Both the position numbers and the translations under genes were made by a program. Of a DNA stretch of 31,603 nucleotides, positions 3,396 through 30,591 are shown piece after piece. The DNA is taken from the IMG/VR virus record IMGVR_UViG_3300037067_004979, positions 74,733-106,335 of that record; one strand, 5' to 3'. Under the pieces are notes generated by a model. The model saw nothing but the letters and a program-made list of their open reading frames with translations. It was not told where the DNA came from and made no database searches. The DNA comes from a virus (lineage: Duplodnaviria > Heunggongvirae > Uroviricota > Caudoviricetes). Position 1 is the stretch's first letter. Each line of letters opens with the position of its first letter.

Positions 3396-4085
3396 ATGAG
3401 AATACTAAAAAATATCATACTAGCTCTAATCATATCCACCATACTATCGTTACCAATTGGATATATTGTGATAACATCAGATATACAACCAGTAAAGAAT
3501 ACAACTATTGTGGATAATGTATCTGTAGTTAAACCAAGTGAAAATTTTACACCAACAAAAAATAATGATACAATAAATGTGTCCATATCCAAGCTAAAAT
3601 ATATATATAAGTACCAATTTGTTGATATAGAAAAAACATATGTAAGAGTAGGATATCCTTCACCAAATATAACATTTAGGGTATTTAGTGAAGAGAATGA
3701 AGAAACACCATTAGATAATATGAAAACATATTCACTCATTGATTTTAGGGGTAAGGATGTAGTCTTAAATTTCTGGGCCTCATGGTGTGATCCATGTAGA
3801 GAGGAATTTCCAGTATTTCAAGAATTCCATAGTTCAAATCCAGATGTTGTTGTTTTGATGATTGATGTAGATAATTCAGATTATAGGGATGCTAGAAACT
3901 TCATTAATAGAAATGCATATACTCTGCCAGTTGTTTATGATGGTAAGCTAACATCTGACGTATATGGACTGTATGGCATACCTAGATCAATATATATAGA
4001 TAAGACTGGATTAGTTAAGAGAATTAAGATAGGTTATTTTATAGATGTTAATGAATTGAGCATTTTTGTTAGGGGTATTAAATGA
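3396..4085 (+). CDS. Membrane-anchored TlpA/ResA-like thiol-disulfide oxidoreductase (redoxin)
   Basis: N-terminal TM/signal; SLIDFRGKDVVLNFWASWCDPCREEFP (CxxC); YGLYGIPRSIYIDKTG cis-Pro loop. Confidence 0.9.
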   Translation: MRILKNIILALIISTILSLPIGYIVITSDIQPVKNTTIVDNVSVVKPSENFTPTKNNDTINVSISKLKYIYKYQFVDIEKTYVRVGYPSPNITFRVFSEENEETPLDNMKTYSLIDFRGKDVVLNFWASWCDPCREEFPVFQEFHSSNPDVVVLMIDVDNSDYRDARNFINRNAYTLPVVYDGKLTSDVYGLYGIPRSIYIDKTGLVKRIKIGYFIDVNELSIFVRGIK

Positions 4086-11128: not shown

Positions 11129-11443
11129 ATGTCAGAAGTAAGTGCAAAGATAGGTTTAACACTGAAGTTATTTAAGGATTCCAGTTATGAGTTTATTCGT
11201 CCTGAGATATCAATTGATAAGATAGATACCTCTAGACCAATTAAACCACAGATAGATGAGGCTGTTAAAGCTATACGTGAGGTTTGGGATGCTACAACAG
11301 AGGAAATGAATAAGATTCTGGCAGATGAGATGCCACAGGTAAATGCTGCAATGGAGGTACAGATAGCCAAAAAAATGAAGCGCATGGAGGAGACAATAAA
11401 ATCTCTTGATGAGCGCATAGCAAAGCTAACGGAGCCTGCATAA
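11129..11443 (+). CDS. Hypothetical coiled-coil protein
   Basis: 104 aa, AGGAG RBS, heptad C-terminus. Confidence 0.75.
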   Translation: MSEVSAKIGLTLKLFKDSSYEFIRPEISIDKIDTSRPIKPQIDEAVKAIREVWDATTEEMNKILADEMPQVNAAMEVQIAKKMKRMEETIKSLDERIAKLTEPA

Positions 11444-11796
11444 TGGATAAGATATCTACCCAGGGTGAGTATCAAAAGCAGGTGTTTGGTAAGGACCTAT
11501 CATCACTATCTGATAAACAAAGGATATCTGAATCTAATACAATGATATTAGCTGTGATAGAGGAACTGATGGAGCTAATGTCAGAGTATAAAGCCTTTGA
11601 GTGGAAAAAAGACAAGACACCTGATATTGATTTAATACATGAAGAAATTGTGGACATATATCACTTTTTTATGAACCTGTGTTTAATCTGGGGTTTAAAT
11701 AGTGATTCTAAATTAGAAGAATTTTATATCAGAAAGCTATCAAAGAATTATGAAAGAGGAGGTTTACATAATGATTCCTCTCACACTCATAAGTGA
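11443..11796 (+). CDS. All-alpha NTP pyrophosphatase (dimeric dUTPase/dCTPase/MazG-like)
   Basis: EELMELMSE..AFEWKK....IHEEIVDIYHFFMN acidic EExxE / EExxD motifs. Confidence 0.8.
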   Translation: MDKISTQGEYQKQVFGKDLSSLSDKQRISESNTMILAVIEELMELMSEYKAFEWKKDKTPDIDLIHEEIVDIYHFFMNLCLIWGLNSDSKLEEFYIRKLSKNYERGGLHNDSSHTHK

Positions 11797-12637
11797 TAAC
11801 ATAGATGATTTATATAAAAAATCTATAGTTGAGATTTTGAGTCAGTACTCTATTGTAGAAGCTAGAGGGTTAAAATTTAAAGAAGTTCTTTTTCCGCATT
11901 TAATTTTAACAAATCCTAGAGCAAGAATTATTCAAAACTCAGCTAGAAAGATTTCTAAAAAATTTATGATGGCTGAGTTTATTTGGATAATGAGTGGAAG
12001 TGAAGATGTCGAAATGATTTCACATTATAATAAGAATATTGTACAATTTTCAGATGATGAAAAGGTTTTCCATGGAGCATATGGCCCAAGATTAAGAATG
12101 TGGGAATATACTGAAAATTACGACCATAAATATTATGATCAATTAAGTGGTTGTTTAGAAAAATTGAAGAATGATCATGGAACACGTCAAGCGGTTATGA
12201 TTATTTTGAACCCTGGAATAGATTTTACAGTAAAAACAAAAGACATACCATGTAATGATTTATTACAATTCTTTATAAGGGATAATAAACTACATATGAG
12301 CTGTTATGTACGTTCCAATGACTTGAACTGGGGTTTTCCGTATGATGTATTTCACTGGACAATGCTACAAGAACTTTATGCTGGTATACTTGGTGTAGAA
12401 CTTGGTGAATACCACCATATTGCTGGTAGTTTTCATATTTATGACAAAGACTTAGAAAAAATGGATTTAATAAGTAGATGTCAAGTTAATCAAATAGAGA
12501 TGCCAAAAATGCCAAAATATACTGATTTACATATATTGACTACATTAAATAACTTTGAAAAAGAAATAAGAATATACCAGAAGCCTATTATTAAAGTTTT
12601 TGATTCATACTGGACTGAATTATTGAGTTGGTTATGA
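11771..12637 (+). CDS. Thymidylate-synthase-family enzyme, predicted dCMP hydroxymethylase
   Basis: TRQAV, DIPCN catalytic Cys, RSNDLNWGFPYD (Asp at the E. coli ThyA N177 position, as in T4 gp42), GSFHIY. Confidence 0.85.
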   Translation: MIPLTLISDNIDDLYKKSIVEILSQYSIVEARGLKFKEVLFPHLILTNPRARIIQNSARKISKKFMMAEFIWIMSGSEDVEMISHYNKNIVQFSDDEKVFHGAYGPRLRMWEYTENYDHKYYDQLSGCLEKLKNDHGTRQAVMIILNPGIDFTVKTKDIPCNDLLQFFIRDNKLHMSCYVRSNDLNWGFPYDVFHWTMLQELYAGILGVELGEYHHIAGSFHIYDKDLEKMDLISRCQVNQIEMPKMPKYTDLHILTTLNNFEKEIRIYQKPIIKVFDSYWTELLSWL

Positions 12638-14307
12638 AAATATCTTTAATTGATGCTATGCAAGCACCCAAAGTGTGTGCTATTGACTTAGAAACCACAG
12701 GTTTATCTTATGTTAGTGATAAAGCTCTAAATATGGGAATATATGGAGATAGTTTTGAAGGTTACTTTAATTTTTGTGATTATTCAAAGTCTCAATTAAG
12801 TAGTTTTTTTAGAGACTTTCTTAAATCACATTCTGTCATATTACATAATGCTAAATTTGACTTTCATTTTATTAATAAATTTACCTCTGTTGAGGATGTT
12901 GAATTCTCAGATACAATGATATTATCCCAGATAATTGATGAAAGAAAACCATCACATAAATTGGATTATTTAGCAAAGTCTAATTTTGGTGATTCGTCTT
13001 GTATAGCAAAAAATAAAGTGGATAATATATGGAAAGAGATAAAGAGCAGAAAAAAAGTTAAACTTTATACAGAAGTACCAGAAAATCTTCTTGGTGACAG
13101 AGCTGTGGAAGATAGCAAGAATTCTTATAAGTTATACAAAATATTTAGGCCTCTTTTATATAATACTTCTGTGTATTCAATGGAAAAAGAACTATTAAAG
13201 AGATTACTTATTATTGAAGAAAATGGTGTCTTGATTGATATAGACTATCTAAAAACCTTGAGGGTAAAATTACAAGATAGTATGCTTGCTCTTGAAGAGA
13301 AATACAAAGATATTAATTTGAATTCTTCTGATCAAGTTGGCAAAATTCTATTTAATAAGATGAATATTAGTCCAACAAAATTTACCAAAGGAGGAAAACC
13401 TTCTGCTGATGAAAGTGTATTAAAATCTTTGAATACTGAATTTTCTAGAGATGTTCTTGAATATAGAAACATATCGCATATGCTGAGTACATATGTTGAA
13501 GCTTTTTTAGATAGAAAGGATGATAATAATAAATTACATTGTAACTTTAAGCAATTGGGTGCAAGAACTAGTAGACTGAGTTGTACAGAACCTAATTTAC
13601 AACAAATACCAAAAGGCGAAATGATACGTAAAGCATTTATTGGTAATAAAAGTCTTTCGACATTCGACTATTCACAAATGGAAGCTATATTATATGCTCT
13701 ATTTAGAAAGGAGAAAACTTTACTTAGTGCTTTAGACAGTGGTAATGATTTGTATAAGGCCATGGCCACACAAGTTTTTTCTAAGAAAATTACTGATATA
13801 ACAGCTGAGGAGCGTGATACGGCTAAAGATATTTTTTTGGGGACTATATATGGAATGGGGCAAAAAACATTAGAAAGTAGAGCGAAAGGCATAACTATAG
13901 GACAGATTAGGTCTGCTTTTAAATCATTAACTAAATTTAATAAAGAAGTTTGTGAAAAAGTAGAATCTGATGGATACGTTGAAACTATTTTTGGTTACAG
14001 AAGACATCTGTTTGAAGATGAGGCTTACAAAGGAATAAATGCTATTATTCAAGGGTCTGCGGCTGGTATCCTTAAAAAATCTATAATAGCTTTTCCTAGT
14101 TATTTATTAAATAAATTTAGAATAACTGTACATGATGAAAATATTTTTGAGGATCTAGAAAAAGATGAATTTTATGAGGTAGAAAAAATAATGACTGAAT
14201 TTAGTGATTATCTTAAAGTAAAGATACGAACTGGTCAGACTTGGTGGGACTGTTGTAAAGATAAGGAACCTTCTTATACTGAAGAATTTTATAAGGTTGG
14301 TATGTAA
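12634..14307 (+). CDS. polA: Family A DNA polymerase with 3'-5' exonuclease, no 5'-3' exonuclease
   Basis: Exo I DLETTG, Exo II HNAKFD; TSRLSCTEPNLQQIP; motif A FDYSQME; motif B RDTAKDIFLGTIYG; motif C VHDE. Confidence 0.93.
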   Translation: MKISLIDAMQAPKVCAIDLETTGLSYVSDKALNMGIYGDSFEGYFNFCDYSKSQLSSFFRDFLKSHSVILHNAKFDFHFINKFTSVEDVEFSDTMILSQIIDERKPSHKLDYLAKSNFGDSSCIAKNKVDNIWKEIKSRKKVKLYTEVPENLLGDRAVEDSKNSYKLYKIFRPLLYNTSVYSMEKELLKRLLIIEENGVLIDIDYLKTLRVKLQDSMLALEEKYKDINLNSSDQVGKILFNKMNISPTKFTKGGKPSADESVLKSLNTEFSRDVLEYRNISHMLSTYVEAFLDRKDDNNKLHCNFKQLGARTSRLSCTEPNLQQIPKGEMIRKAFIGNKSLSTFDYSQMEAILYALFRKEKTLLSALDSGNDLYKAMATQVFSKKITDITAEERDTAKDIFLGTIYGMGQKTLESRAKGITIGQIRSAFKSLTKFNKEVCEKVESDGYVETIFGYRRHLFEDEAYKGINAIIQGSAAGILKKSIIAFPSYLLNKFRITVHDENIFEDLEKDEFYEVEKIMTEFSDYLKVKIRTGQTWWDCCKDKEPSYTEEFYKVGM

Positions 14308-15929
14308 TGCTAATTTCATTAGGGCATAACTCATCTGCTATAAGAACAGGTGATGAAGTAGTTGGCTATGAAGAAGAAAGATTAACAAGAATAAAATCTG
14401 ATTCCACTTTTCCTGTTAATTCATTAAAAAAACTTAATTTTTCAAAGTCAGATGTAACTTATATATCACATTGGTATGATAATTTTGACTTTTACAAAGA
14501 AAGTATACCTGATATAGGAAACCATCAGTATAATTATCTATACATGGGTATGACAAATCCTGAAATAGTGACACTAAGTAAAAATTTTACTCATCATGAT
14601 GCGCATGCCTACTCTTCTCTAGCTTTTTTGAGAGAATTTAGCAATAAAAATGAGCCATTCTATCTAATTGTAGCAGACGGTTTTGGTAACAAACAAGAAG
14701 TTATTTCTATATATAAAACCATAGGAACAGACATTTCTCTAATAGATAGAATTTTTGATTATAAACATTCTTTGGGGTTGCTTTATCAATATGCAACATC
14801 TTTTGTTGGCATGAAGGAAAATCAAGATGAGTATAAATTTTTAGGTTATGAATCACATGTTGATGATTATCTATCAAAAAAAGAAATGGAAGATCTTGAT
14901 AAAGAAGCTTATAAATACATAAGTCACTGGATACAAACTATTGGTAAACATAGTGTATTACCAGATGAAAAATACATAAATATAGAAGAATTAAGAGACA
15001 GCAAAAAGTATTTCTATGATGTTTTTAATGAAATAAATAAGATTTTTAAGTGTAAATCTAAAGATAGCCTTAGGTCTATTATAGGTTACTTTGTACAGAA
15101 AGTAATAGAAGAGATAAATATATACTTTATTCAAAAATATGGGATGGAAAATGTAGCCCTTTCTGGTGGTTTGTATTATAATGTTAAGTTGAATAATAAA
15201 ATATTAAAAACTATTCCTGGTAAACTTAGTGTTATACCACTCGCAGGAGATCAAGGTGCTGCTATAGGCTTGTATTATAAGTATAACTATAGCTTCAAAT
15301 TTAAAGACTTACTCTGGGGCAAAAGAGAAATAGAAAATATTAGCAATTACAACATTAGCCATATAGTTAATAAGCTAAAAAATGATGAAATCGTCCAAAT
15401 TGTTTGTGGTAATATGGAGTTTGGGCCAAGAGCTTTATGTAATACTAGTACTTTATGTATACCAAATAAAGAAAATGTTGGTCTAATTAATTATATCAAT
15501 GGCAGAAATACAGTAATGCCAATGGCACCTGTTATATTAGAGAAAAATCTTGCTGAATTCTTTGAGAAAGACCAATTTTCTAGAGTAATTGGGTCTGATA
15601 GATTTATGATTATAACGTATGATTATAAGAATAATCCTGGTGATTTTTATGGTGGTGCTGCTCATAAATATCCCATGATTGATAGATACAGTGGCAGGCC
15701 ACAAGTAATAACGGATAGAAATTCATACATCTATAAAGTTCTTTTAGAATTGGACAAATCTAATATAAAGATGCTTATAAATACAAGTTTCAATGTGCAC
15801 GGAAAGCCTATTGTTTATTCTGAAATTGATGCTATAAATGATTTTGATTATCAAAAGCAACGTTCAAAGGACAGAAATAACAAGCCTATTCATTTGCTTA
15901 TTGGTAATATATGGAGATCAAATGAATAG
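14307..15929 (+). CDS. O-carbamoyltransferase (CmcH/NodU/TobZ family)
   Basis: GHNSSA, EEERLTRIK, HHDAHAYS, DGFG, LSGGLYYNVKLN, GDQGAAIG, EFGPRAL, INTSFNVHGKPIV; Kae1-like plus YrdC-like domains. Confidence 0.93.
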   Translation: MLISLGHNSSAIRTGDEVVGYEEERLTRIKSDSTFPVNSLKKLNFSKSDVTYISHWYDNFDFYKESIPDIGNHQYNYLYMGMTNPEIVTLSKNFTHHDAHAYSSLAFLREFSNKNEPFYLIVADGFGNKQEVISIYKTIGTDISLIDRIFDYKHSLGLLYQYATSFVGMKENQDEYKFLGYESHVDDYLSKKEMEDLDKEAYKYISHWIQTIGKHSVLPDEKYINIEELRDSKKYFYDVFNEINKIFKCKSKDSLRSIIGYFVQKVIEEINIYFIQKYGMENVALSGGLYYNVKLNNKILKTIPGKLSVIPLAGDQGAAIGLYYKYNYSFKFKDLLWGKREIENISNYNISHIVNKLKNDEIVQIVCGNMEFGPRALCNTSTLCIPNKENVGLINYINGRNTVMPMAPVILEKNLAEFFEKDQFSRVIGSDRFMIITYDYKNNPGDFYGGAAHKYPMIDRYSGRPQVITDRNSYIYKVLLELDKSNIKMLINTSFNVHGKPIVYSEIDAINDFDYQKQRSKDRNNKPIHLLIGNIWRSNE

Positions 15930-17172
15930 TTTTAAGATAGCTTGTTCTGGAGCGTGTCATTCAGGTAAAACTACATTTATAGAGTCAATAAAGGAGAAAC
16001 TTGGGGATGATGTTGTCATTTTTAATGAGCATGCAAGAGATGAGTCTATTAGCAATATAGATGAGCTTCGTAATAATTCAGATGAATATTTTAAATTCCA
16101 GACTAGAGTGATATCAAACAAGATTAAAGATGAAAATTATTCCTTTAGTATAAAGGATAAAATTATTCTTTTTGATAGAAGTTTAGTAGATTCATTTTAT
16201 TATTTAACATTTTTTGTAGATAAATCAACTTTATCAAGAGAAAATCTAGCTGAGTACTTAGGCTTTGTTAATTCTTTATATGATAGAAATGTTAAACCAA
16301 TTTATGATAGAATTTTGTTCTTTAATAGTCTATCTATAAAAGATCAGACTGACAAATACAGACCAAAGAATTTGGATTTATACCAAGAACTTGAGGAAAA
16401 ATATATATCATTGCTTTTAAATGGATTCAACAACAAAGTTAGTCAGTTTTCTAGAAAAGAAGATGATATTTCTTCTTTGATTTTTTCTATAAAGGAAAAT
16501 ATGGTTATGGCGCAGCAAAAGGTACTCTCTTCATATATAAACTATGAAGAGAGTATTGTAAAGAAGTACTTAATTTTAGATAATATCATTTCTAATAGAT
16601 TTGGATCTGTTGTGTCAAGTTCTTTTGATATGGATTATATGTTATTATCTGGTTTGTTGTTTAGTGATAATGTAGAAAATAGTAATATGATTATTAACAA
16701 AATAAAAGATATAGAAATAGAGCCAGATTTTATGAATTCTAGGTGTCACCCAACTGGCTTATTTATAAAAGGTAATGACATGATAGTTGGTGAGGCTCCT
16801 GGGCAAAAAGGCAGATCTATAAAACCAGAATATTTAAAGCCATCTTTTATTTTTGAAAAGCCTTCTTTCATATTAAGGAATTCTATAAAAGAGTCATTCA
16901 ATAGAATGCCATATATAACAAATCTTCTTAAATATGCTAGATCTGATAATAAAGTGACCAAAAAAGATTTTGATAAAACATCACACATCTTTGATTTAGA
17001 AGTTGATTTATTAAGCCCAAAAAGAATATTTGTCTTAGGAAGAAATGCTTTTGAATATCTATCTGAAAAATATTCAAATGTTATTTATATTAAGCATCCA
17101 GCAGCTATATTGTATACAGGAGAAGACATTAACGAATATAAAGCCTCTTTCAAGGAGAAAATTAAATGCTAG
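15922..17172 (+). CDS. Fusion of P-loop nucleoside/nucleotide kinase (AAA_28/NadR-like) and uracil-DNA-glycosylase-like domain
   Basis: N-terminal GACHSGKTT and FDRSLVD; C-terminal IVGEAPG, YITNLLK, E..LLSPKRIFVLGRNA, KHPAAILY. Start ATG 15922 preferred over 15838. Confidence 0.8.
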   Translation: MNSFKIACSGACHSGKTTFIESIKEKLGDDVVIFNEHARDESISNIDELRNNSDEYFKFQTRVISNKIKDENYSFSIKDKIILFDRSLVDSFYYLTFFVDKSTLSRENLAEYLGFVNSLYDRNVKPIYDRILFFNSLSIKDQTDKYRPKNLDLYQELEEKYISLLLNGFNNKVSQFSRKEDDISSLIFSIKENMVMAQQKVLSSYINYEESIVKKYLILDNIISNRFGSVVSSSFDMDYMLLSGLLFSDNVENSNMIINKIKDIEIEPDFMNSRCHPTGLFIKGNDMIVGEAPGQKGRSIKPEYLKPSFIFEKPSFILRNSIKESFNRMPYITNLLKYARSDNKVTKKDFDKTSHIFDLEVDLLSPKRIFVLGRNAFEYLSEKYSNVIYIKHPAAILYTGEDINEYKASFKEKIKC

Positions 17173-17780
17173 TAAATGTATTTAAAGCACCATTTTCAGA
17201 AAATGATACATTTTTAATTAAATTAATTAAGTTTAATTTGGCAGAAGAAAAACTTAATATTTTATGTAGTAGTGATGAGTACTTAGATTTAAAAATTAAA
17301 AGATTCAGAGAAAAGAATACATCTACATCTGGATTTGAGAAGTTTGAGAAAAAAGCATCTTTAAGTAGGCCATTAGACTCTCTAGAAGGTTCTATATATA
17401 CTTATACATGTGAAATTAGAAATAATGATACATATAGTGAATCTATAGATCATATTAAAACTCTTGTTAGTAAGAATTCAAGGAGGGCTATTTTAAGATT
17501 TTTAAATTCTGGATGGTCTTACTATTCATCAGAAACTATAAATAAAAAACTTAATGTTACATGTCTAGCCTATATTCAATACTTTAAAGACAGAGTTTCT
17601 ATTGTATTCAGAGCTAGTGATTTACAAGAAGAGCTGTTTGTTGATATAATAACTATATATGAATTTTTTATAAAGCCAATTTATAATATTCCTATAAATA
17701 TAGAAATATATTCTACTTCAGTTCAGAATCATTTATATTTTGGTGATTTAATTAATAAGCTGGAACTATTGGAGGGATGA
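17166..17780 (+). CDS. Second, shortened and divergent thymidylate-synthase-fold protein
   Basis: SRRAI, NVTCLAYIQY (Cys at the PC position), FRASDLQEELFVD (same R-x-x-D...D spacing), NHLY. Confidence 0.6.
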   Translation: MLVNVFKAPFSENDTFLIKLIKFNLAEEKLNILCSSDEYLDLKIKRFREKNTSTSGFEKFEKKASLSRPLDSLEGSIYTYTCEIRNNDTYSESIDHIKTLVSKNSRRAILRFLNSGWSYYSSETINKKLNVTCLAYIQYFKDRVSIVFRASDLQEELFVDIITIYEFFIKPIYNIPINIEIYSTSVQNHLYFGDLINKLELLEG

Positions 17781-22113: not shown

Positions 22114-22333
22114 AGTTATATTGGATTGCAAAAGAACATGTCCTAATAAGGCAAATGACCCATGTGATCCTGAAGATTGCCTTAAAGCCCAAGCTCGTCA
22201 CTTCTGGGAGTATCTCAATGAGACTTGCAATGAGCATGAAGCTACACAGAGAAATGGACACCGGCATCCCCATCGTTATCGTTGCCCCGAATGTCTGAAG
22301 CAAATTAACAAGGAGTTAGGTGTATATGAGTGA
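22106..22333 (+). CDS. Cys-rich hypothetical protein
   Basis: Start ATG 22106 (MSKVILDCKRTC); C-terminal CPEC. Confidence 0.65.
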   Translation: MSKVILDCKRTCPNKANDPCDPEDCLKAQARHFWEYLNETCNEHEATQRNGHRHPHRYRCPECLKQINKELGVYE

Positions 22334-22805
22334 AAATAACATAATAGAAAAGATAAATGAGAAGATAAAATCATACCCTCTCCCAAAAAAGCCAGTCTCA
22401 TTTGGTGGTGAGTACACATTTCCAGAGGATATATCCAATGTAACATCAATTGATCTGGGGCAGTGGATGTTTAAGTTAGCAGCCTGGAAGGGTTATGCAT
22501 TAAAGAGATTATCATTTGCTGAGACTGAGTTGTCAATTGTGGATGATTCATATGATGCTCTGTTAGCAAAGGCTCTTGCTACAATGAGTCCAGACAAGAT
22601 GTTAAAGAAGGAGGCCATGATAGGTAAGGCTCTCAACTCAGATGAGAGATTACAGAAGTTAAAGGAACGAGTTATATCTATGTCTGGTGAGGTTGCTGGA
22701 ATCAGAAGAGTGGTTGAGATCTATACCATGCAGCTGGAAATAGTATCTAGGGAGATATCTAGGAGGTCAATGGATGTGAGGAAGGGTATGTCTGTACATG
22801 AATAA
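22326..22805 (+). CDS. Coiled-coil protein, UvsY-like recombination mediator candidate
   Basis: Long heptad helices ending VSREISRR, a pattern seen in UvsY-like phage proteins. Confidence 0.5.
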   Translation: MSENNIIEKINEKIKSYPLPKKPVSFGGEYTFPEDISNVTSIDLGQWMFKLAAWKGYALKRLSFAETELSIVDDSYDALLAKALATMSPDKMLKKEAMIGKALNSDERLQKLKERVISMSGEVAGIRRVVEIYTMQLEIVSREISRRSMDVRKGMSVHE

Positions 22806-23241
22806 GGTTATATATACTGTGTTTATAAATAATATTGGTAAGATAATAATAGATGATGTAGTAAATGATGATATAGAGCATGCTAAGTTCTTGATGTCTC
22901 AGGCTAGATGTGGTTGGAGATCAGAATTTAATATTCCAGTACCTATTGAGATACTTGATTCTAATAAATCACCAGAATGGGACTGCTTTGTAAAAATAAA
23001 TGATACCTGTGATACTGATGTGGTTCACGATTTTTATGAATCTGATAGATCATTGATAGATAATAAGAGACTGAAAGATCTTGGTGATATCTATGTATCT
23101 GACTCAATATATCATATTTTTAAGATAAATCCACAAAAAATGAAGAAGTATTTTAAAGCAATACCCAAAAAAGATGCTGATACAATAAAGAGAGATTTTA
23201 TGCTGCGTAATTTAGAGGGAGAAAATAGTGATCAAGAATAA
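22798..23241 (+). CDS. Hypothetical protein
   Basis: 147 aa, coupled to the FtsZ-like gene; ends MLRNLEGENSDQE. Confidence 0.7.
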   Translation: MNKVIYTVFINNIGKIIIDDVVNDDIEHAKFLMSQARCGWRSEFNIPVPIEILDSNKSPEWDCFVKINDTCDTDVVHDFYESDRSLIDNKRLKDLGDIYVSDSIYHIFKINPQKMKKYFKAIPKKDADTIKRDFMLRNLEGENSDQE

Positions 23242-24223
23242 GCTATTTAATGCCCCAGTTATTCTATCATTTGGTAGTGGGGCCGGTAAGATAATATCAC
23301 AGTTAAGTATTCCCAGCGTGTATAAGATTGCAGTTAACTCATCAGAGAGAGATTTGATGCTAATTGATAAGAGAGTTGATTCAATTGTTATTTGTGGTAA
23401 GGGTAATGGGTCTGGGATGGATCCGGATCAAGGCCAGGCAGACTTCTCATCTAGGTCCAAGAGTGTTGGCAAGGAGATAGAGGAGGCTATAGAGGAATCT
23501 AGATCAAGAGATATAGATATGATACCATGCATATTTAGTCTAGGTCATGGATTTGGTAGTGGTAGTATATACCCAGCAATAGAGTTTCTTAGAGATAGGT
23601 ATAAGAATGCAGTTATACTGCCATTTGTTGTGACTCCATTTACCTGGGAGGGAAAGCCTGTTATTGATAGAGCATATCTAGCACTGTCAAGAGCTATCCA
23701 ACTCAGTACATGTGTTGTTATCTCTAATGAGGAGGTTGGATCACAGTATGGGGATATTGGGGTTGGTTATGACAGAATCAATGGTCTGATTGGTGATGCC
23801 ATATCAACAATACTGAGGTCATTCTCTGCTACAGATGGTATCATACAGACTGTTGATAAGAATGACTTTGGCAAGTTCTTTAGAGGAGATATGGCTACTG
23901 TCAGACACATGAAGATAAAGTCTGCAAAGGATCTCAGGTTTTCTGATATCAAGGATGGAATAGGACGTCGTTGGATTAAGGTTGATGCTAAGGTGTTTAA
24001 GCCAGCTCATAAGCTAAATATCTTCTACATCCTTGACGGGAAGGGCCCGTTTAATCCACAGGTTTTGGGGGATATAAGTGATAACATCAGTAAGAAGGAT
24101 TACATTAATATGGAGTACATAAAGCCACTCTTGATACAAAGGAAATCAAGTGGATGTGATTTTGTATGGATGGAATCTGGCTTTAAATTAAAGTTGGATA
24201 AAAACATATATGGAGAATATTGA
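23228..24223 (+). CDS. Divergent FtsZ/tubulin-superfamily GTPase
   Basis: T1 SFGSGAGKI, T2 AVNSSERDL, T3 GNGSGMDPDQG, T4 SLGHGFGSG, T5 TPFTWEG, T6 ISNE, T7 GIIQTVDKNDF in the correct order and spacing. Confidence 0.85.
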   Translation: MIKNKLFNAPVILSFGSGAGKIISQLSIPSVYKIAVNSSERDLMLIDKRVDSIVICGKGNGSGMDPDQGQADFSSRSKSVGKEIEEAIEESRSRDIDMIPCIFSLGHGFGSGSIYPAIEFLRDRYKNAVILPFVVTPFTWEGKPVIDRAYLALSRAIQLSTCVVISNEEVGSQYGDIGVGYDRINGLIGDAISTILRSFSATDGIIQTVDKNDFGKFFRGDMATVRHMKIKSAKDLRFSDIKDGIGRRWIKVDAKVFKPAHKLNIFYILDGKGPFNPQVLGDISDNISKKDYINMEYIKPLLIQRKSSGCDFVWMESGFKLKLDKNIYGEY

Positions 24224-24241: not shown

Positions 24242-24505
24242 ATGATTATGAAAGTAGGTTTATTTTTAGTATGTATTGTGTTTGTCCTGTTATTTTCTAG
24301 TTGTGCACCATCAGTTGTGTCACCTTTTAATTCTAGAGTAGACCTTGATAATTTTTGTTTAATACATTATTACTATGATTCTACACATGAGGTAGGAATA
24401 TGGCATGTAAAGAATGGGTATGGTGAGAGCCTATTTGTTCTTCCAGCATCACAGTTTAAGAACGCAGAAAAGATGACGGTGTTAGAGCCATTAAGAAATA
24501 GATAA
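24242..24505 (+). CDS. Putative lipoprotein
   Basis: K + hydrophobic stretch + LLFSS-C lipobox-like. Confidence 0.65.
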   Translation: MIMKVGLFLVCIVFVLLFSSCAPSVVSPFNSRVDLDNFCLIHYYYDSTHEVGIWHVKNGYGESLFVLPASQFKNAEKMTVLEPLRNR

Positions 24506-24655
24506 ATGATATTTATTAAAGTTTGTATGGCATTACTTACTATTTTGGGAGCAGGTTTGATTTTTATAGGAGAAAAAGCTGGTATAGTGGTTATTACTAT
24601 GGGATTTTTCGGTTTTATATTAGCATTTGCTCCAGTAGGAGGGGGACCACAATAA
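24506..24655 (+). CDS. Small two-TM membrane protein (49 aa, not in ORF track)
   Basis: MIFIKVCMALLTILGAGLIFIGEKAGIVVITMGFFGFILAFAPVGGGPQ*; TAATG coupling to the next gene. Confidence 0.6.
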   Translation: MIFIKVCMALLTILGAGLIFIGEKAGIVVITMGFFGFILAFAPVGGGPQ

Positions 24656-24780
24656 TGAATGATTTTTACGATAAGTTTAAAAAGTCTTTAGATGATGGAA
24701 GAAGAGAGGCTTTTATAATAATTTTAGTTATCATAATAGGAATACTTTTTGCTTGTTTTGGGTGGGCATTTATAAAATGA
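24655..24780 (+). CDS. Small single-TM protein (41 aa)
   Basis: MNDFYDKFKKSLDDGRREAFIIILVIIIGILFACFGWAFIK*; GGAGGGGG upstream. Confidence 0.6.
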   Translation: MNDFYDKFKKSLDDGRREAFIIILVIIIGILFACFGWAFIK

Positions 24781-25038: not shown

Positions 25039-25067
25039 ATATATGGTATTTTGAAGGAGTGATGGTA

Positions 25068-25238
25068 ATGAGAGATCCCAAGAGAATAGATAGAATTCTA
25101 AAGCAGATCGAGAAAATTTGGATTGATAATCCTGATCTCAGGTTAATGCAGTTACTTGGCAATTGTTGGCCTGCTGGTGATCATTATTCTCGTGAAGATG
25201 ATGAACTTGAGAAGAGATTGAGTGAGTTATATAAGTGA
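25068..25238 (+). CDS. Conserved phage small protein (YihD/DUF1040-like, 56 aa, not in ORF track)
   Basis: MRDPKRIDRILKQIEKIWIDNPDLRLMQLL, a widely seen phage motif; strong RBS. Confidence 0.8.
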   Translation: MRDPKRIDRILKQIEKIWIDNPDLRLMQLLGNCWPAGDHYSREDDELEKRLSELYK

Positions 25239-27519: not shown

Positions 27520-27964
27520 TGCTGATTCAAAGAAATTAGCAGTTGTGGTTTTTGAGGATGATAAATTTGATTCAATGCACTTTTTTGAGTCAAAATCAAA
27601 GATAACACAGGAGAGGGTGTTTGATCTTTACTTTCACTTTGATTCATTCATAAAGTCTAGTAAGATAGATATGGTGGTTATGGAAGAATCCTTCTATACA
27701 AATAATTTTAAGACCAGCAAGGCAATTACAGAAGTGCTTGGTAATTGCAAAATGATATGTAGATTAAATAATATTCCATTTAAAATGGTTCAAAATAGGT
27801 CTTGGAAGAAGACTGTTATTGGTAGTGGTGATGCTACAAAGGATGGTATCAAGAGATTTGTGGTTGATAGGTATCCACAGTTTGAGAGAGAACCACAGGA
27901 TCTTAGTGATGCTCTATGTGTATGTTTGTACGGTGTTTTTACTAAGTTAAGAGGAGATGATTAA
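27500..27964 (+). CDS. ruvC: RuvC-like Holliday junction resolvase
   Basis: IAGID, VVMEE, WKK.VIGSGDATK, QDLSDALCV acidic tetrad. Confidence 0.85.
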   Translation: MRIAGIDADSKKLAVVVFEDDKFDSMHFFESKSKITQERVFDLYFHFDSFIKSSKIDMVVMEESFYTNNFKTSKAITEVLGNCKMICRLNNIPFKMVQNRSWKKTVIGSGDATKDGIKRFVVDRYPQFEREPQDLSDALCVCLYGVFTKLRGDD

Positions 27965-30591
27965 TGGCTAATTTTTCTGATGAGGCAGTGGAGATACTTA
28001 AGGCCAGGTATCTCAAAAAAGATAGAGAGGGTAATGTTATAGAGACTCCTGATGAGATGCTGGAGAGAGTGGCAGAACATATATCAAAAGCTGAGAAACC
28101 TGAGGATCAGAAGAAGTGGAAGAAGAGGTTTCTGGATATAATGAATACACTTGAGTTTCTCCCAAATAGCCCAACTCTTATGAATGCAGGTAAGGATATT
28201 GGCCAACTCAGTGCATGTTTCACATTACCTGTTGAAGATAATCTAGCTGCAATATTTGAGGTAGTGAAGGAGTCAGCCTTGATACATAAAACTGGGGGCG
28301 GTACTGGATTTAATTTCTCAAAGCTAAGACCTGCTGGATCAATAGTTGGTTCTACTAAGGGTGTTGCTAGTGGCCCAGTGTCTTTTTTGCAGGCCTTTGA
28401 TGCTGCAACTGAGACAGTCAAGCAGGGGGGAGTAAGACGTGGAGCTAACATGGGTATTTTAAATTGCACACACCCAAATATATTTGAATTTGTTGATTGT
28501 AAGAAAAACACATCCAGGTTTCAGAATTTTAATCTATCAGTTGGTATAAATGGTGATTTTTTAGATAGATCAAAAAGTGGTAAAAATCATATTTTAATAA
28601 ATCCATGTAATAAGAATGATAAGATAGTAGTTGATTCAAAAAAATTAATGAATAGAATATGTAGTAATATCTGGGAAACTGGTGAACCAGGAGTAATATT
28701 TTTAGACATTATAAATAAATACAATGTCATACCTTGGATGGGAAAAATAGATACAACGAATCCATGTGTTTCTGGTGATACATTAGTAATGATTGCTGGG
28801 GATTCTCCAAAGAAAATAAAAGATCTTGTTGGTAAGAAATTCCCGGTCTTTTGTGTAAATAAAAGAGGCAAACTTGTAGTAAGAAATGCTTATAATGTTA
28901 GAAAAACTAGAAATAATCAGAAATTATATAAAGTTTTATTAGATGATGGTTCATTCATAGACGCCACTGAAGACCATACTTTTATTCTATCAAATAACAA
29001 AAAAGTATTATTAAGAGATTTAAAAGCTGGGGATTCTCTTATGAGATTTGATAGAGAAACATATAATTGGCACGGAGTAAATTATTGGAAAGTATCTAAT
29101 GGTAATATTGGTAAACTAGAACATAGACATCTTGATGAATATTATTTTGGAAGAAAATGTAATGAAGATGAAATAATTCATCATAAAGATTTTAGTGGGT
29201 TAAATAATCTAAAAGAAAATCTTCAAATAATGACTAAGAAAGAACACAGGGATATTCATGATATATCAGGAGATAAAAATCCCATCTTTAAGTTAAAGAA
29301 AAATGGGAAATTTGAAGAATATAAAAAAAGAAATTCTTTTTATAATACTTCTGGAGAAAATAATCCTAGATATGGCGTGAAACTTAGTGATGAAACTAAA
29401 CATAAAATAGGTATTAAAACCATAGAAAGATTCACAAATGAAGAATTTAGACTTAAGCATTCTGAAGCTGTAAAAAAATCTATGGTGGTGGCAAAGGATA
29501 AATTAATCGGTGACAGAATAGAAAGAGAAGAAGTTAAATGTGAATTTTGTAATGGGACAATTACAAGGAAAATTAATTCAGAAAGAGTCTTTTGTGATGT
29601 ACTCTGTAGAAATAGAGGTTTAAACAAAAGAAGATCTGCAAGAGTAAATCATAAAGTAATATCTATAGAATTTTCTAGAGTAGAAGATGTTTATGATCTT
29701 ACGGTGGATGAATTTCTTAATTATGCAGTTGTGACTTCTCAAGATGAAGCAGGCCAACATGGTTTAGTTATCTGGGATTGTGGAGAACAACCACTATTGG
29801 CATGGGAATCATGTAATCTTGGTTCTATTGATGTATCAAAATTTTATAAAGATGAAGATATAGATTGGAATAGACTAATCAAGGTAGTTGAGATAGCCGT
29901 TAGATTTCTTGATGATGTTATTGATGTGAATAAGTACCCCCGAGTTAAGATAGAAAGAAAAACAAAAACAACTAGAAAAATTGGACTTGGTATAATGGGG
30001 TGGGCTGATTTATTGTTGGAAATGAAAATAAAGTATGATACTGATGATGCATTGGCATTGGCAGAGAAACTAATGTCTACCATAACTAATCATGCTCATA
30101 GGGTTTCAGAGCAGATTGGTAAGGAGAAGGGATACTTTCCTGCTGGTAATGGGAAATTGAATAGAAGAAATGCTACTTTGACCACAATAGCTCCTACTGG
30201 TACTTTATCTTTGCTAGCTAATTGTTCTAGTGGGATAGAACCTGTTTTCGCTAAAAATTTTACAAAGAAAGTTTTGGGTGATGTGAAAATAGATATTTCA
30301 AAGAAATATAAAGATCATGTAGATAGTTATTTTGTTACTGCACTAGAGATAAAGCCTGAATGGCATGTAAGAATGCAGGCGGCATTTCAAAAATATGTAG
30401 ATAATGCAGTGTCAAAGACCATAAATCTTCCATTTGAGACCACAATTGATGATATAAGAGATGCTATTTATCTAGCACATTCTCTTGGGTGTAAGGGTCT
30501 TACATTATATAGGCAGGGTACAAGAGAAGCCCCAATAGAGATAAGTACTGAGGGTCTTAGTGAGTGTGATAATGGAAAGTGCAGTATTTAA
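27964..30591 (+). CDS. nrdJ: Class II (adenosylcobalamin-dependent) ribonucleotide reductase containing an intein
   Basis: FLPNSPTLMNAG, QLSACF, GGGTG, RRGANMG, TNP[intein]CGEQPL, ESCNLGSID, TTIAPTGTLS, C-terminal CDNGKC; no ATP cone and no beta subunit nearby. Extein is about 537 aa. Confidence 0.9.
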   Translation: MANFSDEAVEILKARYLKKDREGNVIETPDEMLERVAEHISKAEKPEDQKKWKKRFLDIMNTLEFLPNSPTLMNAGKDIGQLSACFTLPVEDNLAAIFEVVKESALIHKTGGGTGFNFSKLRPAGSIVGSTKGVASGPVSFLQAFDAATETVKQGGVRRGANMGILNCTHPNIFEFVDCKKNTSRFQNFNLSVGINGDFLDRSKSGKNHILINPCNKNDKIVVDSKKLMNRICSNIWETGEPGVIFLDIINKYNVIPWMGKIDTTNPCVSGDTLVMIAGDSPKKIKDLVGKKFPVFCVNKRGKLVVRNAYNVRKTRNNQKLYKVLLDDGSFIDATEDHTFILSNNKKVLLRDLKAGDSLMRFDRETYNWHGVNYWKVSNGNIGKLEHRHLDEYYFGRKCNEDEIIHHKDFSGLNNLKENLQIMTKKEHRDIHDISGDKNPIFKLKKNGKFEEYKKRNSFYNTSGENNPRYGVKLSDETKHKIGIKTIERFTNEEFRLKHSEAVKKSMVVAKDKLIGDRIEREEVKCEFCNGTITRKINSERVFCDVLCRNRGLNKRRSARVNHKVISIEFSRVEDVYDLTVDEFLNYAVVTSQDEAGQHGLVIWDCGEQPLLAWESCNLGSIDVSKFYKDEDIDWNRLIKVVEIAVRFLDDVIDVNKYPRVKIERKTKTTRKIGLGIMGWADLLLEMKIKYDTDDALALAEKLMSTITNHAHRVSEQIGKEKGYFPAGNGKLNRRNATLTTIAPTGTLSLLANCSSGIEPVFAKNFTKKVLGDVKIDISKKYKDHVDSYFVTALEIKPEWHVRMQAAFQKYVDNAVSKTINLPFETTIDDIRDAIYLAHSLGCKGLTLYRQGTREAPIEISTEGLSECDNGKCSI
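28765..29778 (+). mobile_element. Intein (338 aa) with HNH homing endonuclease at the RNR thiyl-radical Cys
   Basis: Block A CVSGDTLV, block B ATEDH, HNH EHRH...IIHHKD..LNNLKENL...EH..IH, NUMOD3-like GENNPRYG.KLSDETKHKI, block F VYDLTV, C-terminus VIWD followed by +1 Cys (CGEQ). More AT-rich than the extein. Confidence 0.92.

Follow-up and report, generated by a model that had tools for sequence, protein, structure and literature searches.

The open reading frame at 23228-24223 (plus strand) encodes a 331-aa GTPase of the tubulin/FtsZ superfamily, with two domains and no tail, as indicated by Pfam, PDB, structural modelling, fold searches and trees. It belongs to a real, selected and apparently unnamed lineage of the superfamily, designated here the GHGFG clade. 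The GTP-binding motif of this lineage is altered, yet to judge from the sequences the enzyme appears to stay functional.

The gene, its fold and its locus

The window, i.e. the whole 31.6-kb stretch of DNA analysed here, is the end of a 106,335-bp virus record (G000; CheckV 100%). The gene is intact (331 codons), starts with GTG downstream of the ribosome site GAGGGAG, and its product begins at the same position as those of its homologues. A contig from a public groundwater run, perhaps from the same sample as the record, spans the gene with zero differences within it, and DNA near-identical to that of the phage was present in three metagenomes, two of landfill and one of groundwater; no RNA data set was among the matches listed. 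Pfam Tubulin (PF00091) matched the protein over the cut-off (E 2.8e-10) and gave a hit in all 30 clade members, and the best PDB sequence match was Methanosaeta CetZ (3zid, E 1.7e-13), followed by M. jannaschii FtsZ. The AlphaFold2 model (pLDDT 89.5, pTM 0.91) had the full two-domain FtsZ/tubulin fold with both the Rossmann-type GTPase domain and the C-terminal activation domain, and was near-tied in its similarity to FtsZ, CetZ, BtubA and tubulin (Z 28-31 over ~300 residues, 13-21% identity). An earlier sequence-only reading had called the product a viral FtsZ/tubulin homologue in which all seven GTPase loops could be placed and from which the FtsZ C-terminal FtsA/ZipA-binding peptide was absent. 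Pfam, the fold match and the trees bore out the homology, T1-T7 all aligned with the references, and the chain ended in a beta-hairpin, with neither a linker nor the FtsA/ZipA peptide. No match to the protein was found in PHROGs, INPHARED phages or PLSDB plasmids, nor in an IMG/VR scan with a single sequence.

Among the products of the phage genome are a terminase, a portal, an SU10-type capsid protein and a tail tube protein, and its DnaB, DnaG, PolA and RecA are of bacterial type. The tubulin gene sits between a RecA/VSR/Cas4-like/UvsY-like block and RuvC/RNR, and the order RecA/Cas4-like/UvsY-like, tubulin, RuvC/RNR was seen in all phage loci of sufficient length. The candidate UvsY-like recombination mediator (22320-22805, plus strand) is a helical protein, conserved in the phage family, whose top Foldseek hits were all T4 UvsY (E 0.03, TM ~0.5); taken with RecA and an SSB, it is suggestive of recombination of the UvsX/UvsY type. 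Both this gene and a DUF1040-like 59-aa gene (25059-25238, plus strand), which often adjoins the tubulin gene, also occur in relatives without tubulin at the locus, and in related phage fragments the UvsY-like, DUF1040-like, RuvC and RNR genes are contiguous in its absence. The tubulin gene is therefore dispensable; at this locus it counts as a stand-alone accessory gene specific to the lineage, and the fragments without it could carry it elsewhere. Promoter-like sites were no commoner than in shuffles, and the repeats around the tubulin gene were chance or ribosome-site repeats. Neither the surroundings of the gene nor the rest of the genome contained an iteron array, and there was no conserved TubR-like neighbour, in agreement with the earlier remark that TubR and centromere repeats were not to be seen.

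The neighbouring genes had been proposed as anchors or partners. A lipoprotein (lipobox F-S-S-C21) and two hydrophobic mini-ORFs (24506-24655 and 24655-24780) do follow the tubulin gene at 24242-24780 on the plus strand, as had been described, and a 147-aa ORF precedes it at 22798-23241 (plus strand). However, none of the four products had a match beside any homologue in the related loci or in the whole of the colinear record G003, although tblastn is weak for membrane peptides of 40-50 aa, and the lipoprotein had no match in IMG/VR. Some other small membrane ORF was nearby in two of the eight loci with downstream DNA, and the genes flanking the tubulin differed among loci. We therefore rejected the membrane-anchor hypothesis, since no anchor gene stood beside any homologue, and the proposal of the 147-aa product as a partner is unsupported; this is a tubulin without a fixed partner gene.

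Several other features of the phage were recorded. The ribonucleotide reductase (27964-30591) carries an intein with an HNH endonuclease, and its relatives have no insert or other ones. A low-GC block (0.27-0.30) at PolA (11443-17780), unmatched in G003, contains a thymidylate-synthase-like gene, a carbamoyltransferase (Pfam E 2e-28), a nucleotide-kinase fusion and a second short synthase-like ORF, and looks like a DNA base-modification cassette. A membrane-anchored TlpA/redoxin-type thioredoxin is encoded between tail and replication genes (3396-4085). G000 also has four tRNA genes (L085:7350; L086:615-2322), including one for Ile with a TAT anticodon, an SPFH/Band-7 gene, a MoxR-like AAA gene, and PI3/4-kinase-like and ATLF-like metallopeptidase domains in the head region. 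A papain-family C1 peptidase (G000:56644-58146, i.e. L086:16644-18146) adjoins a membrane protein, and the two may serve to lyse a host that has no peptidoglycan; Amidase_2 and Amidase_3, the two lysin families searched, were absent from G000 and G003. The 'provirus' label of G003 was discarded as a host clue, as G003 is colinear with G000 and the 5.8 kb trimmed from it corresponds to the late-gene region of G000.

An altered GTP signature and its evolutionary position

The GGGTG(S/T)G loop is a hallmark of tubulins and FtsZ. In the phage protein the T4 loop (residues 106-112, 23543-23563, plus strand, as are all loops below) reads G106-H-G-F-G-S-G112, so that nothing survives of the canonical motif but the glycines at four positions and the closing S/T. 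This replacement, noticed in the sequence-only reading, was confirmed by alignment, with H107 and F109 in 19 of 19 close homologues. Position 2 of T4 is aromatic throughout the clade (H in 23, F in 5, Y in 2), position 4 is mostly F or C, and distant members (22-39% identical) retain the four-glycine frame. The T1 loop (residues 14-22, 23267-23293) has an invariant Ser17, where CetZ and tubulin have Gln and FtsZ has Gly. In the T3 loop (residues 57-66, 23396-23425), Ser62, found in 29 of 30 clade members, takes the place of the FtsZ alanine that lies next to the gamma-phosphate and touches it through its amide. The sole clade member with a T4 Thr is also the sole member with a T3 Ala; the corresponding T4/T3 covariation count (47/49) comes mostly from close relatives and not from independent cases. 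It is plausible that Ser62 and Ser17 stand in for the lost T4 threonine, as the one informative sequence hints. In E. coli FtsZ, the T108A substitution at the same T4 position markedly lowers GTPase activity (PMC3618327).

T5 (P137-F138-x-x-E141-G142, 23636-23653) is FtsZ-like and keeps the longitudinal-interface Phe (F138 in 29 of 30 clade members), and in T7 (residues 204-214, 23837-23869) D210 and D213 are invariant in 30 of 30, so that the D-x-x-D noted earlier holds for the whole clade; the Asn of the FtsZ N-x-D-x-x-D is Thr208 here and Thr or Ser in the clade. The T7 loop becomes active only once inserted into the pocket of the neighbouring subunit. For PhuZ, this mode of catalysis is treated in PMC7950403. 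Across 19 homologues the conservation of T1-T7 was 0.81-0.96 versus 0.70 overall, and the guanine contacts (Y181/N185), the pocket loops and the interface Phe138 were all conserved.

The protein has 18 further homologous clusters with 51-82% identity. In the IQ-TREE analysis (LG+G4, 60 rows, 310 columns, with one named CetZ and without eukaryotic tubulin, artubulin or Borg tubulin), the whole GHGFG clade had a support of 99/96 and the phage subclade one of 100/99. The clade was placed on the CetZ/TubZ/PhuZ side (97/95), apart from FtsZ, and FastTree concurred. Phylogeny, as had been suggested, thus separated the family from FtsZ, CetZ, TubZ and PhuZ. Its sister group in the tree (P0056, P0061 and L060) may be a long-branch join. 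AU tests rejected the grouping of the phage subclade with bacterial FtsZ (p 3e-13), with PhuZ+TubZ (p 1e-4) and with CetZ (p 2e-82, three CetZ-like rows); these tests concern the phage proteins grouped without their GHGFG relatives and not the whole clade as a sister of CetZ. FtsZ_C and TubZ_C domains were found in none of the 30 clade members and the CetZ C-terminal domain (PF21011) faintly in one (E 0.007).

These data also bear on the possibility that the gene is a recently captured host ftsZ in decay, which the labelling of homologues as 'cell division GTPase FtsZ' in several databases could favour, but these labels are automatic. Against it, the TIGR00065 score was 28.7 bits versus a cut-off of 295.2, ten of ten compared reading frames were intact, dN/dS was 0.07-0.09 in the two unsaturated pairs where it could be measured, and GC and GC3 were as in the neighbouring genes. 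The AU test against bacterial FtsZ, the intact frames and the low dN/dS rule it out, leaving a negligible probability. The altered signature is an old, selected family trait and not decay, given its conservation in 19 of 19 homologues, the clade support, the AU tests, the dN/dS values and the open frames.

With CetZ (3zid; Haloferax CetZ1/2, 4b46/4b45; CetZ4 of pHV4) the phage protein shares a high fold similarity (Z 29-30), the T1 Lys-Ile, T2 Asp and H7 Tyr...Asn patterns and the side of the tree. However, the loop alignment showed that its T4 and T5 are not CetZ-like, it has Ser in T1, it is basic and not acidic, and it has neither the C-terminal helix nor the acidic tail of CetZ. FtsZ (M. 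jannaschii 2vap/1w5a and bacterial) ranked first in the fold comparison (Z 31), with the C-terminal hairpin matching as well, and shares the T5 P-F-x-x-E-G and T7 D-x-x-D patterns; by contrast, identity is 13-19%, the linker, the T7 Asn and the T5 Arg are missing, and the phage gene is not in a division cluster. The sequence-only reading was right in calling the loops FtsZ/CetZ-like, with T5 and the C-terminal hairpin on the FtsZ side and T1, T2 and H7 on the CetZ side.

PhuZ and TubZ are named in reviews as the characterised phage tubulins. Like PhuZ (phiKZ gp39 and relatives), the present protein is a GTPase of tubulin fold encoded by a phage, with neither TubR nor a centromere, but the genome here is 106 kb, the C-terminal H11/acidic knuckle tail, which PhuZ requires to polymerise, is missing, and TM scores were 0.55-0.59 to PhuZ-type models versus 0.73-0.77 to FtsZ. 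TubZ (c-st CST189, pBM400, phage G gp138) is likewise a tubulin of mobile elements on the same broad branch; however, the upstream small regulator gene that c-st has, the iterons and the long C-terminal tail have no counterpart here. The protein is thus neither PhuZ nor TubZ, in line with the earlier reading, and forms a separate clade.

A deep, uncharacterised FtsZ-like TACK clade from Culexarchaeia, lying between FtsZ2 and CetZ, was described by Kohtz (2022; PMC9723716), who also stated that close TACK relatives lack FtsZ. The GHGFG clade likewise has chromosomal TACK members (a Nezhaarchaeales-labelled bin and Caldarchaeales), and its archaeal branch may overlap the Culexarchaeia clade, as compared by description; viral members and an altered signature are unmentioned in that study (PMC9723716). 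Other non-canonical archaeal proteins of the superfamily have been reported (PMC9856176), and Borgs encode a tubulin-like protein. Viruses and phages go unmentioned in one superfamily phylogeny paper, and the GHGFG motif was not found in the literature searched, which covered few subscription papers.

Occurrence in phages, mobile elements and archaea

Most of the characterised contexts of the clade are mobile elements, namely phages, an integrase-TrwB element and an archaeal virus-like contig. The phage members belong to syntenic phages of ~100-106 kb from freshwater and subsurface (anoxic-water) samples. One lineage, 54-55% identical, was found in two samples directly after the tyrosine integrase of an integrative element with ThiF and a TrwB/DUF87 ATPase (L109:5858-11002 and L110). 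The 90% cluster of a neighbouring gene in this element includes a protein from a Dehalococcoidales bin, and its integrase is similar to clusters including Chloroflexota; this indirect link to Dehalococcoidales is the only host hint, and direct attempts to identify the host gave none. The archaeal virus-like contig, from a hot spring, encodes a primase large subunit and an ERCC4 nuclease in addition to its clade member.

Among 401 sampled Thermoproteota genomes, full-length members above 300 bits were present in seven and partial ones in two more; a pattern scan of the genome contigs missed members that this genome search found, and is no evidence of absence. The Caldarchaeales copies adjoin genes for large secreted proteins, and their genomes carry a true FtsZ as well. 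Other chromosomal copies (L025, L049, L051, L018 and L027) lie by a hydrogenase operon, in a locus conserved in the Nezhaarchaeales-labelled bin and its relatives, and canonical FtsZ was not found in three incomplete genomes with chromosomal clade copies; the five proteins are candidates for the sole tubulin-family cytoskeleton of those archaea. The C-terminus of the Nezhaarchaeales members forms a helix that is amphipathic and basic (hydrophobic moment 0.61-0.88), so that part of the family looks membrane-attached. A cluster of gas-vesicle genes precedes a further clade member (L031:1-11179). B12-radical-SAM genes, 27% identical, were observed near the tubulin there and in L033:7902-10491. 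Outside the clade, tandem arrays of four divergent FtsZ-like genes were observed in three Thermoproteota genomes (G195:C37, G343:C20 and G349:C25).

Proposed function and its significance

The conservation of the GTP pocket, together with that of the T7 face, makes a self-assembling GTPase filament quite probable. GTP would be bound in a rewired pocket, in which Phe replaces the T4 Thr and new serines are present in T1 and T3; the subunits would polymerise head to tail into FtsZ/CetZ-type protofilaments, with hydrolysis through D210/D213 of the adjoining subunit. The earlier suggestion of a dominant-negative inhibitor of host division, in which a GTPase-poor subunit would cap or co-polymerise with host FtsZ or compete for its partners, fits a stand-alone gene without partners, the replacement of a threonine whose loss cripples FtsZ, an FtsZ-like T5 Phe and T7 that could dock on FtsZ, and the lack of a membrane-tethering tail. 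However, the low identity to FtsZ structures speaks against it, and both polymer faces are conserved clade-wide, a better fit to self-assembly than to capping. The suggestion is further weakened because the signature is an ancient family trait that also occurs in archaeal chromosomes, including those of the three incomplete genomes where FtsZ was not found, and we consider it improbable.

The use to which the phage would put the self-assembling filament is more tentative. Of the roles weighed here we favour, at slightly less than even odds, one in which the dynamic filament would organise replicating viral DNA, gathering or positioning it within the host cell as PhuZ and TubZ do; PhuZ and c-st TubZ are viral tubulins that move DNA (PMC7950403). 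In favour of this role are also the position of the gene in the replication/recombination block of one sub-lineage of ~106-kb tailed phages, the prevalence of mobile elements among the characterised contexts, and the branching of the clade on the CetZ/TubZ/PhuZ side. The pI of the phage-subclade proteins is 7.6-9.0 compared with 4.7-5.8 for FtsZ, CetZ, PhuZ and TubZ, and the charge resides mostly in the C-domain, whose net value is +7 to +10 for six of the seven rows from the phage subclade and negative or near-neutral in the other four families. By net charge and pI, the basic/aromatic S7-H9-S8 region (residues 228-263, 23909-24016, plus strand; net +4 to +8 among phage-subclade members) is a candidate DNA- or membrane-binding surface. 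As neither adaptor nor tail was found, contact with DNA would be made directly by the basic C-domain or through an unlinked factor, replacing the PhuZ/TubZ tail and the TubR-centromere complex. Several observations weigh against a DNA-organising filament: no DNA adaptor or centromere was found, the tail on which PhuZ polymerisation depends is missing, the gene is dispensable in related phages, T108A at the equivalent position cripples the GTPase of E. coli FtsZ (PMC3618327), the basic surface suits membranes equally, and the position in the replication block may merely mirror expression timing.

The same surface could instead serve a CetZ-like membrane cytoskeleton, in which the basic/aromatic loop would bind the inner membrane and the filament would reshape or enlarge a peptidoglycan-free host (possibly Dehalococcoidia) or aid virion release. 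The closest solved sequence is the Methanosaeta CetZ, T1, T2 and H7 are CetZ-like, and the Nezhaarchaeales members have their terminal helix; in addition, the papain-type protease lies by a membrane gene in G000, Amidase_2 and Amidase_3 are absent from G000 and G003, and the 54%-identical element copy has its Dehalococcoidales-linked neighbour. However, the phage copies do not have the helix (moment 0.25-0.33), the proposed anchors are unconserved, and the host assignment is indirect, with two lysin families searched. We regard this role as unlikely, and the remaining probability falls to roles outside those weighed here.

By sequence comparison, one lineage spans bacterial phages and archaea, and its function is a prediction. 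A wider and rather speculative reading, which we hold to be less probable than not by a clear measure, is that an archaeal-type tubulin crossed into bacterial phages and integrative elements with a pocket built from T4 His/Phe and T1/T3 Ser, that its adaptor-free filaments bind viral DNA directly in small peptidoglycan-free hosts, and that the chromosomal relatives are the only tubulin-family cytoskeleton of Nezhaarchaeales. If true, it would represent a further independent lineage of viral cytoskeleton. A selected family with a natural His and Phe in T4 offers a direct test of which pocket contacts are needed for GTP hydrolysis and filament dynamics. The family takes the viral tubulins beyond PhuZ and TubZ, into phages of medium size (~106 kb), and connects them with as yet uncharacterised TACK-archaeal tubulins; one or more transfers between archaeal and bacterial hosts, in either direction, are implied.
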